Positions 645-2,591 of a DNA stretch of 64,000 bases are shown here, piece by piece; the stretch's first letter is position 1; each line of letters opens with the position of its first letter. The stretch lies in contig FR890375.1 in assembly GCA_000432835.1 (NCBI GenBank), forward strand, positions 26,412 to 90,411, given 5' to 3'. The notes beneath the pieces were generated by a model. That model was not told the origin of the DNA and ran no database searches. It saw only the letters and a program-made list of their open reading frames with translations. This DNA is from Clostridium sp. CAG:417 (lineage in GTDB: Bacteria; Bacillota_I; Bacilli_A; RF39; UBA660). Both the position numbers and the translations under genes were made by a program.

Positions 645-2591
645 ATGAGAACAAAGGAACAAGCTTGTACAGCATGGCGTGAAATGTGTAAGAATTGTAG
701 TAATCATGAAGAATTTTTTGCTGGTGTTTTTAGTGCTATATGGGAAAATACAATGCCTTATATCGAGTTATGTGATGAAATGTGTGATAAATTTAGTATT
801 GCTACACTTAGTAAAGATACTGTTGCTATACAAGAATTATATAAAACTGCGACTTTAAACGATTATCAAAAACAAAAAATAAAAAGTATGTTAAAAACAA
901 ATAATGAATTATTGCTAACTTTAAATCCTTATATTTTACAAGAAAAGTATGCTTTTTTAGAACCATACGTAAACGAATTAGCGTTAGATACAATTATTCA
1001 AGATAGATTATTAAGTCTTGATGATTACGAATTATACATAATAAAAAAAATAGTTGATTTATCATCAAGTTATGGTATAAATTCACATAGATTAATTGGT
1101 ACCATTATAGATCGTTTGGGTAGATCATCTATTCCAGGTAGAAATAATGAGAAATTTTTAGAAAAAATTAGTTCTTTATTTGATTTAATTAAAGAGTTTG
1201 AAAATCAGTATACTTTAAATGATGAAATAATCGGAAATATTGGATTTATAATCAAAACTGGAATTTTTCCAAAAAATGTTGAAGAACTTGAAGATTTTAC
1301 TGGTAAAATAAAAGGAATGCTATCTGAAGATATAAATACTAATAATGACATAAGTGATTTAAAAGATGACTTACTATATGCTTTATTTGGAATAGATTTA
1401 TCAGATGCTAAATTTTTCGTTAAAGCTTTTGATGTAGAAGGCTTATCACCTGAATTAGCATTAAATGAAGGTGTAATAGAACTCACAACTATAAAAATGA
1501 TATTAGGTTATGAAGATATTGATAAATTAAAGGAAGTTGCAACAACTTTAATAAATGGTACTGAATTTAAAATTAATTTATTTAATAATAGTTTGATTGA
1601 AGAAAATCTTTTATTACTTTATGCTAATGAATTTAATAAATGCAAGCCTAAATTTAATGAATCAAATATATTAACAACTATAGATGGTATTAATGTTTAC
1701 GATTCAGGAGATCAATTTTATTCAATTGTAAAAACTTTAGGTGCTTTCTCAGAAGATGGAAATGGACAAGCAAATTATTACGAAGAATGGAATAATGATA
1801 GGTATAGGAGTCATATAAACGCTGTAAGTTTAATAAGAAATGATAATTTAGCATTTGCAGAGCAAGATGGAAAACTACATATAAAATTAGGTTTTTATGA
1901 TTTTGATGAAACAATGTTTTTAGGTGGTGGCAATAAAGATATTAATAGTACCCCAGATAGTAGAAATATGGGTGCAAAAATATATTCTAAATTAAGCCTA
2001 CCTAGTAAATTCATAGATAGTACAAGAGAATGGCATAACGAATTAGACTTTGAAAGAAAAAGCACTGATCCACGAAACCCACATTTCAAAAAAAATCCAG
2101 ATTTTATTATTCTGGATCAAGAATGCGAAGATATTTCACAACTTAGTGTAGAAGAGCAAAAACAATTTGAAGAATATAGAAATAATACTATTAAAGCAGC
2201 AAAAGAATTTGGAAATCTTCCAATATTAGTAATAAATAGAGAAAGAATTGCACGAAATGAAAACAATTTAATTAGAAAAATGTTAGATGACTATAATGTT
2301 TCTCATGATATGGGATTACTAAAAAATATAATTATAAAATTTAATAATAATAGAAATGGTTGTAGAGGACCACAACATAAATATATTCGTGAAAAATACT
2401 TTTCTAATCAGTATTTTCAAGAGATACTTAATGAAATTGATAGTATCATACCAGAAAATCAAAAAGAATTCTTTTATGAATTTGTAAAAAATGAACATGA
2501 AAAGATGGCTGGTTGTTTTTATGATAATACAACAAAAGATATGCCTATTCAACCAAATGAATTATCTAAAAGAGGTGGTTTAAATGTCTAA
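645..2591 (+). CDS. hypothetical cargo protein (about 649 aa; track ORF starts at TTG 627), Cys-rich N-terminus, no recognisable domain
   Basis: Long uninterrupted ORF. ATG at 645 is preceded by AAGGTAG-type RBS. N-terminal Cys cluster (C-x6-C-x2-C ... C-x3-C). No catalytic motif recognised by eye. Confidence 0.55.
   Translation: MRTKEQACTAWREMCKNCSNHEEFFAGVFSAIWENTMPYIELCDEMCDKFSIATLSKDTVAIQELYKTATLNDYQKQKIKSMLKTNNELLLTLNPYILQEKYAFLEPYVNELALDTIIQDRLLSLDDYELYIIKKIVDLSSSYGINSHRLIGTIIDRLGRSSIPGRNNEKFLEKISSLFDLIKEFENQYTLNDEIIGNIGFIIKTGIFPKNVEELEDFTGKIKGMLSEDINTNNDISDLKDDLLYALFGIDLSDAKFFVKAFDVEGLSPELALNEGVIELTTIKMILGYEDIDKLKEVATTLINGTEFKINLFNNSLIEENLLLLYANEFNKCKPKFNESNILTTIDGINVYDSGDQFYSIVKTLGAFSEDGNGQANYYEEWNNDRYRSHINAVSLIRNDNLAFAEQDGKLHIKLGFYDFDETMFLGGGNKDINSTPDSRNMGAKIYSKLSLPSKFIDSTREWHNELDFERKSTDPRNPHFKKNPDFIILDQECEDISQLSVEEQKQFEEYRNNTIKAAKEFGNLPILVINRERIARNENNLIRKMLDDYNVSHDMGLLKNIIIKFNNNRNGCRGPQHKYIREKYFSNQYFQEILNEIDSIIPENQKEFFYEFVKNEHEKMAGCFYDNTTKDMPIQPNELSKRGGLNV

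Follow-up and report, generated by a model that had tools for sequence, protein, structure and literature searches.

A stretch of 64,000 nucleotides from Clostridium sp. CAG:417 (contig FR890375.1, positions 26,412 to 90,411), called the window in what follows, carries close to its left end a genomic island at a tRNA-Gly gene, and the cargo of this island is a compact cassette in which a gene for a 648-residue protein overlaps an unannotated open reading frame (ORF) of 24 codons. The preliminary description of the window, made from the sequence alone, regarded the large gene as an unassignable, Cys-rich cargo gene and as a candidate for a novel defence or accessory function; it missed both that the gene is not a single unit, owing to the 24-aa ORF, and that the cassette is not tied to the element. 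New here are the size of the protein family, a twilight-level ADP-ribosyltransferase (ART)-like core with an invariant Glu, a conserved micro-ORF partner, and an association with HD domains.

Architecture of the cassette

The features that make up the cassette are the following.

613-621, plus strand: extended -10 promoter element TGATATAAT, from direct reading of the sequence, ~24 nt 5' of the ATG
645-2591, plus strand: large gene, 648 aa, with ATG at 645 and a stop codon ending at 2591
2584-2658, plus strand: unannotated 24-aa ORF MSKKENDKKKLYELCLKIISILKK; its start ATG and the large-gene stop codon overlap (TTAAATGTCTAA)
2657-2694, no strand assigned: hairpin terminator of 17 pairs, common to the convergent cassette and relaxase gene

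The ORF that had been described at 645-2591 is present, with 648 codons in place of the estimated 649 or so. The Met at 645 is the common alignment start for all the homologues, and an in-frame TTG at 627, which is the mechanical start of the ORF, would extend the product to 654 aa. The local DNA contains only 24-27% G+C, and an ORF of 1.9 kb in such low-G+C DNA is therefore far beyond chance. The ratio of non-synonymous to synonymous substitution rates (dN/dS), calculated against four homologues with 58-79% protein identity, is 0.24-0.29, and the gene is found once in the window and once per locus. In conclusion, 645-2591 is a real gene under purifying selection and not a pseudogene, being full length in nearly all of the 57 homologue clusters described below. 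A 95%-identical copy frameshifted at about residue 134 is present in two metagenome-assembled genomes of the Hadza gut (loci L018 and L021, 8001-9945); pseudogenization or faulty assembly would account for this, and the 24-aa ORF is intact in both.

The promoter and the terminator that the preliminary description attributed to the gene are both recognizable. The extended -10 element TGATATAAT is followed, at about 630-639, by the ribosome-binding-site-like sequence AAAGGTAGTG, and is kept in the upstream regions of nearer homologues (L001, L009, and L024); since a generic promoter scan is not above chance level (74 sites versus 74.4 expected), the promoter call rests on position and conservation. 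On the opposite side, T runs flank the 17-pair hairpin on both strands, with the large gene and the convergent relaxase gene on either side of it, and the region contains more terminator-like sites than expected (10 versus 1.9).

The second gene begins inside the first one. The Shine-Dalgarno sequence of the 24-aa ORF, AAGAGGTGG, is located within the last codons of the large gene, those for the C-terminal KRGGLNV, and is conserved; the conservation of this C-terminus would otherwise be oddly high. Among loci with 55-80% protein identity, DNA similarity extends from ~605, at the promoter, to 2654-2660, at the stop of the peptide ORF, i.e., ~68 nt beyond the stop of the large gene, covering the 24-codon ORF and ending right at its stop codon; in loci with 70-79% identity it likewise begins at ~605. 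The ORF is intact and in the same position in 17 homologous loci and accompanies the large gene in every complete locus, and gene callers overlooked it in all close loci. The variable sites, counted by codon position over ten distinct sequences, are 7/2/17, and the ratio of synonymous to non-synonymous codon differences is 199:225 in frame versus 69:323 and 33:381 in the other frames. In addition, a small ORF of 30-148 aa abuts or overlaps the stop codon in seven of the seven distant family members examined, and the motif YE[IL]x[LK]KI..[LF]KK is common to some of these small ORFs. Judged from these sequence patterns, the 24-aa ORF is a conserved and translationally coupled gene encoding a predicted Lys-rich helical peptide partner of the large protein. 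The overlap, the conserved Shine-Dalgarno sequence and the coding-type pattern therefore define a unit composed of promoter, large gene, peptide gene and terminator, in which two adjacent co-transcribed genes are kept as a pair, as in two-gene toxin-antitoxin (TA) and abortive infection (Abi) modules.

The island at tRNA-Gly and the spread of the cassette

The island spans about 486-7361 and has the 648-aa gene as its cargo, because a repeated 12-mer from the tRNA-Gly 3' end bounds it and a MobV relaxase together with a serine recombinase lies inside; its features are given below.

486-497, plus strand: distal edge of the island, CCTTATGGAGCG, in which the 3' end of tRNA-Gly and 5 nt of its flank recur in direct orientation
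2670-3995, minus strand: MobV-type relaxase (Mob_Pre), 441 aa (PF01076, E 1.1e-11)
2847-2861, plus strand: left copy TTGCTTAAAATATTT of an imperfect ~15-bp repeat, with its partner TTGCTTAATAATATTT at 7197-7212
4187-6025, minus strand: large serine recombinase, 612 aa (Resolvase, E 1.4e-36; Recombinase, 9.8e-17; Zn_ribbon_recom, 2.5e-5)
6262-6945, plus strand: orphan gene of the element, 227 aa, an ORF without a family match
6942-7217, minus strand: small gene, 91 aa, Met at 7217, a paralogue of the 103-aa ORF at 81-392
7355-7428, minus strand: tRNA-Gly (UCC), whose 3' end is the proximal island boundary (repeat copy at 7350-7361)

The 12-mer CCTTATGGAGCG consists of the last 7 nt of tRNA-Gly and 5 nt of flank, and its exact copies at 486-497 and 7350-7361 are the only matches in the window when up to one mismatch is allowed (2 versus 0.08 expected). 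The similarity of loci L007, L015, L016, and L017 to the window starts at 490-493, in keeping with the left boundary. With att-like repeats of 12 bp, a MobV relaxase and a serine recombinase, the earlier assignment of the gene to an integrative mobilizable element (IME) is upheld. The element shares with other IMEs of the MobV/large serine recombinase type the gene pair, the repeats of a tRNA 3' end and a self-contained cargo cassette; unlike them, its cargo belongs to an undescribed family and outlives the mobility genes in a sister locus.

As for the occurrence of the gene in other elements, this holds for L015, where the arrangement is the same as in the window island, and does not hold for L007, where the cassette is present without mobility genes, nor for L002, where it stands alone. 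In particular, L007 is 99.4% identical to the window over 491-2861 and then runs straight into 7194-7431, lacking a 4.3-kb segment that contains the recombinase gene, two small orphan genes and the greater part of the relaxase gene. This segment is bounded by the imperfect repeat (TTGCTTAA[A/TA]ATATTT), and the L007 junction (12197-12225) falls within it. L007 can represent a deletion or a pre-insertion state; the former is the more parsimonious origin, given that L007 still has the final 64 codons of the relaxase, as part of an 88-aa ORF, and the loss could be due to site-specific excision or to a microhomology deletion. In L017 the similarity to the window breaks at 2691, in L001 the genes downstream of the cassette are different from those of the window, and in L002 a 64%-identical homologue stands by itself, with pheS on one side and a trmA-like methyltransferase gene on the other. 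Independent of the window element, the cassette persists without mobility genes and in unrelated contexts.

The large gene occurs in the genomes of eleven GTDB species, five of which have copies with 95-99% protein identity and differing flanks; this points to a recent horizontal spread of the cassette among several gut 'Bacilli/Tenericutes' species. In L010, an ORF of 649 aa located close to the homologue is not its paralogue.

These contexts bear on the possibility that the protein is an establishment or anti-defence effector serving the element, one that is expressed on entry into a host and counteracts its immunity, as phage T4 does with its Alt/Mod ARTs and conjugative elements with their polyvalent proteins. 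The gene adjoins the relaxase gene on the IME, a 29%-identical relative lies within a PcfJ/PcfK/SSB/DUF3846 block typical of conjugative elements, and many relatives are giant multi-domain proteins. Such a role is nevertheless quite unlikely, since the cassette is kept at 99% identity after the loss of relaxase and recombinase, it stands alone in L002 between the trmA-like gene and pheS, no relatives are found in the phage and plasmid collections, and the majority of the distant homologues are chromosomal and surrounded by housekeeping genes.

Homologues, fold and candidate active site

A word-indexed search retrieved 57 homologue clusters, nearly all of 645-656 aa, with 98-100% query coverage and identities from 99% to 29%, from assemblies of uncultured gut 'Bacilli', 'Firmicutes', and 'Candidatus Coprovivens'; the cluster with 99% identity holds 380 sequences, and partial copies of the gene exist. 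When the word-indexed search was repeated with the core alignment, it brought little more. An exhaustive profile search covering 1.84 billion representatives (clusters at 50% identity) found 779 clusters at E<=1e-3, 248 of them at <=1e-30. The members of this wider family are mostly larger, with a median length of ~1000 aa among the 150 best profile matches and a maximum of 3240 aa, and profile positions ~75-620 correspond to one module within them. Among 37 large members, HD domains were detected in 7 and DUF4116 repeats in 5, and nothing else was found; P0086, P0087, and P0096, which belong to those seven, have the HD domain as a C-terminal fusion. A linkage to HD proteins is also visible at the gene level, as an HD protein is encoded two genes upstream in L004 (7785-12302) and right after the small ORF in L031 (4042-14915), and L030 (6001-9187) is likewise among the distant loci with a linked HD-domain phosphohydrolase. 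The window protein itself has neither an HD domain nor an HD neighbour.

The protein is, at the level of sequence, the founder of an undescribed family and part of no described one. The preliminary description had found no known motif in it, and no usable match came from any sequence library tried: Pfam, NCBIfam, and PADLOC gave no match to the 648-aa protein, searches of PDB sequences with the protein and two profiles gave chance-level matches only, and the only PHROG match was weak (phrog_17981, E 0.024) and is without an assigned function there. For 17 diverse cores, Pfam returned no recurrent family even at E<=10, and none of the profile searches produced a confident match to a housekeeping or mobile-element function. 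The literature on 'CteC-like' proteins and DUF4116 yielded no lead.

The breadth of the family could also fit a lineage-specific cellular protein of low-G+C Firmicutes, regulatory or structural, devoid of any conflict role and present on the element incidentally; the 779 clusters, many of them chromosomal and near housekeeping or pilus genes, and the lack of a match in the defence library are in its favour. It is unlikely, considering the near-identical copies in five species with differing flanks, the patchy single-copy occurrence with occasional frameshifted copies, the self-contained cassette from promoter to terminator, and the association with mobile elements in two unrelated contexts. 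A single-gene selfish element, i.e., a new transposase or homing gene, was considered because the gene is solitary in several loci, one cluster contains 380 sequences and partial copies are found. This candidate was rejected as close to negligible: the gene is single-copy, no terminal inverted repeats flank it, no transposase profile or fold matches it, and the conserved unit ends at the promoter and the stop codon and not at repeat ends.

Some further members deserve mention. The last ~55 residues of P0027 (757 aa) are present in three tandem copies, with core-profile positions 263-318 matched three times. In L013 (3512-18991), on a contig of a spore-former, a 2996-aa member is directly downstream of a set of genes resembling a type IV pilus or type II secretion system (T2SSF, prepilin peptidase and a 567-aa N_methyl pilin). 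The neighbours of the L025 homologue are uninformative orphans.

The AlphaFold2 (AF2) model of the full-length protein has a predicted local distance difference test score (pLDDT) of 89.3 and a predicted template-modelling score (pTM) of 0.87; when the core alone was modelled from a diverse alignment, the values were 82.3 and 0.84. Residues 1-331 are predicted to be helical (75-331 all-helical), 342-531 to form an alpha/beta core, and 532-632 a helical bundle. Two parts are of interest here.

Residues 1-74: variable N-terminus with five Cys, helix and beta-hairpin in AF2
1668-2237, plus strand (aa 342-531): alpha/beta core domain, candidate ADP-ribosyltransferase-like catalytic domain

The N-terminal pattern C-x6-C-x2-C ... 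C-x3-C is present as described earlier (C8, C15, C18, C43, and C47), and its five Cys, all within residues 1-47 and retained as a set by the closest subgroup, could suggest a zinc-knuckle protein with a metal site central to its function. The label 'Cys-rich' was too strong for a protein with nine Cys in 648 residues, and the knuckle does not withstand the comparison of homologues, in which C18 alone is invariant and the other positions are kept in 30/37 (C15), 21/37 (C8), 19/37 (C43), and 16/37 (C47) sequences, with Ala, Val, Leu, or Pro in place of C43 and C47 in roughly every second homologue. Moreover, the profile matches of the wider family begin at about residue 75 and AF2 places a helix and a beta-hairpin in this region, making a central role of an N-terminal metal site very improbable.

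Conservation is concentrated in the core, whose near-invariant residues are W382, S395, N399, G416-F417, D432, T460, N465-E466, R471, P485, and P526. Over 112 non-redundant cores, E466 (nt 2040-2042) is 100% conserved; W382, F417, D432, G416, R471, N569, N465, T460, P485, and P526 are conserved at 94-99%, S395 at 91%, N399 at 90-91%, and H390 at only 76%. High up among the Foldseek hits, four entries of CteC (E 0.8-2) are the sole proteins of the alpha/beta type. CteC has the motif R65/S97/E220, an essential D134, and the strand order of mono-ADP-ribosyltransferases (mARTs) with an insertion between b4 and b5 (PMC10810742). The strands predicted in the window core (359-365, 391-398, 413-417, 425-429, then an insertion, 466-470, and 487-492) fit the mART b1-b6 order with the insertion between b4 and b5, as in CteC. 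In this mapping, the long b2 carries S395 within a T-S-[YL]-I stretch resembling the 'STS' motif, D432 follows it by 37 residues, the same spacing as from S97 to D134 in CteC, and E466 opens b5. From the model we infer that the core may be a very divergent ADP-ribosyltransferase-like NAD+-using enzyme, one that resembles ARTs weakly, at a twilight or grey-zone level.

Proposed role, related systems and neighbouring genes

In the mechanism that best accommodates these observations, the extended -10 promoter would drive the large gene and the overlapping 24-aa peptide gene up to the terminator, and the cassette travels as cargo of the MobV/serine-recombinase element at tRNA-Gly and is kept also after the loss of the mobility genes. 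The helical domain of the protein might act as a sensor or target-binding part and the core as an ART-like NAD+-using effector, and the peptide, made by translational coupling, could be its partner, either an inhibitor or antitoxin or a regulator, so that the pair would behave as a TA-like addiction module or as an abortive-infection (defence) module. An ART-like effector with a peptide partner in a TA-like or defence module is offered tentatively, as a possibility well short of an even chance. It is suggested because the pair is retained after the decay of the mobility genes, has spread between species and has self-contained expression signals, and because relatives are accompanied by HD hydrolases and by a conjugative-element block.

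Several results weigh against this interpretation of the cassette. Foldseek found nothing significant in the PDB, the best hit, CteC, having an E-value of 0.78, a probability of 0.23 and a template-modelling (TM) score of 0.26-0.34; no ART-family profile matched the protein, the 17 diverse cores or the 37 large relatives (Pfam, with PDB profiles for the protein and core); and no conserved Arg or His can be placed on b1, where H390 reaches only 76%, leaving the triad incomplete. The mART mapping itself is drawn from secondary structure and residue spacing and not from coordinates. At the level of genomic context, PADLOC-DB v2 gave no match for the protein or its neighbours, there is no macrodomain or ARH partner as in DarTG-like systems, many distant homologues are chromosomal among housekeeping genes, and no relative was found by tblastn with the protein and a distant core in INPHARED phages or PLSDB plasmids, nor any close relative in an IMG/VR scan. 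In PADLOC the large relatives gave only weak Cas3-HD matches, on their HD parts.

About as likely as the ART-like effector is a conflict-related enzyme with other chemistry, i.e., a new fold or a nucleotide- or nucleic-acid-directed activity that might, for instance, act together with the HD phosphohydrolase/nuclease of the relatives, the likeness to ARTs being topological only. Arguing for an ART are the three separate structure searches in which ARTs were the only alpha/beta neighbours and the strand order with the positions of S395, D432, and E466, which fit the mART layout; a joint action with an HD enzyme is at odds with the window protein, which has neither HD domain nor HD neighbour.

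In a broader formulation, the protein, its 24-aa partner and, in relatives, an HD phosphohydrolase would make up a conflict system of two or three components that has so far gone unrecognised in low-G+C gut Firmicutes. It would comprise an extremely divergent ART-like or new catalytic domain under the control of a micro-peptide and would represent a new class of TA or defence module, counting hundreds of members; this is possible, if somewhat doubtful.

If the reading of the pair as an ART-like effector with a peptide partner is correct, a large family (779 clusters at 50% identity, with no model in Pfam, NCBIfam, or PADLOC) would join the ADP-ribosyltransferases with an unusual active-site make-up, a 24-residue peptide overlooked by gene callers would be the fixed partner of a 650-residue enzyme, and a compact 2.1-kb cassette moving between uncultured gut Bacilli could be cloned and directly tested. 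Even if the ART assignment fails, the protein would be a target for new biochemistry, having a confidently predicted fold without relatives among solved structures, an acidic residue that never varies, and repeated links to HD domains.

Among characterized proteins, the identity to CteC of Chromobacterium violaceum, an mART of the R-S-E or cholera-toxin-like type (PDB 8ux2 and 8htd), is 9-10%. CteC, an effector of 276 aa, is secreted and acts on host ubiquitin, whereas the window protein is a 648-aa cytoplasmic bacterial protein that, unlike CteC, has large helical domains on both sides of the core and a peptide partner, and lacks a conserved b1 Arg. In the DNA ADP-ribosylating TA/defence system DarT-DarG, the partner is a macrodomain hydrolase, in contrast to the 24-aa Lys-rich peptide, predicted to be helical, found here, and no similarity in sequence links the window protein to DarT. 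The SidE-family effectors of Legionella combine an mART with a phosphodiesterase; the window protein has no HD domain, no deubiquitinase domain and no sequence similarity to them, and the analogy to this family, of which SdeC was matched, is a lead only.

Around the island, the 103-aa ORF at 81-392 (minus strand) is located just beyond the distal boundary and its 91-aa paralogue at 6942-7217 (minus strand) within the island, near tRNA-Gly; the two share 37% identity (E 2e-20), neither has a family match, and the pair may derive from tandem or successive integrations at tRNA-Gly. Directly past tRNA-Gly, an Imm33 immunity-protein gene (PF09951, E 1.7e-35) occupies 7496-7834 on the minus strand, with no toxin gene seen near it within the stretch read there; it is followed at 7882-9015 (minus strand) by a gene whose 377-aa product is an internally duplicated multi-pass membrane protein.

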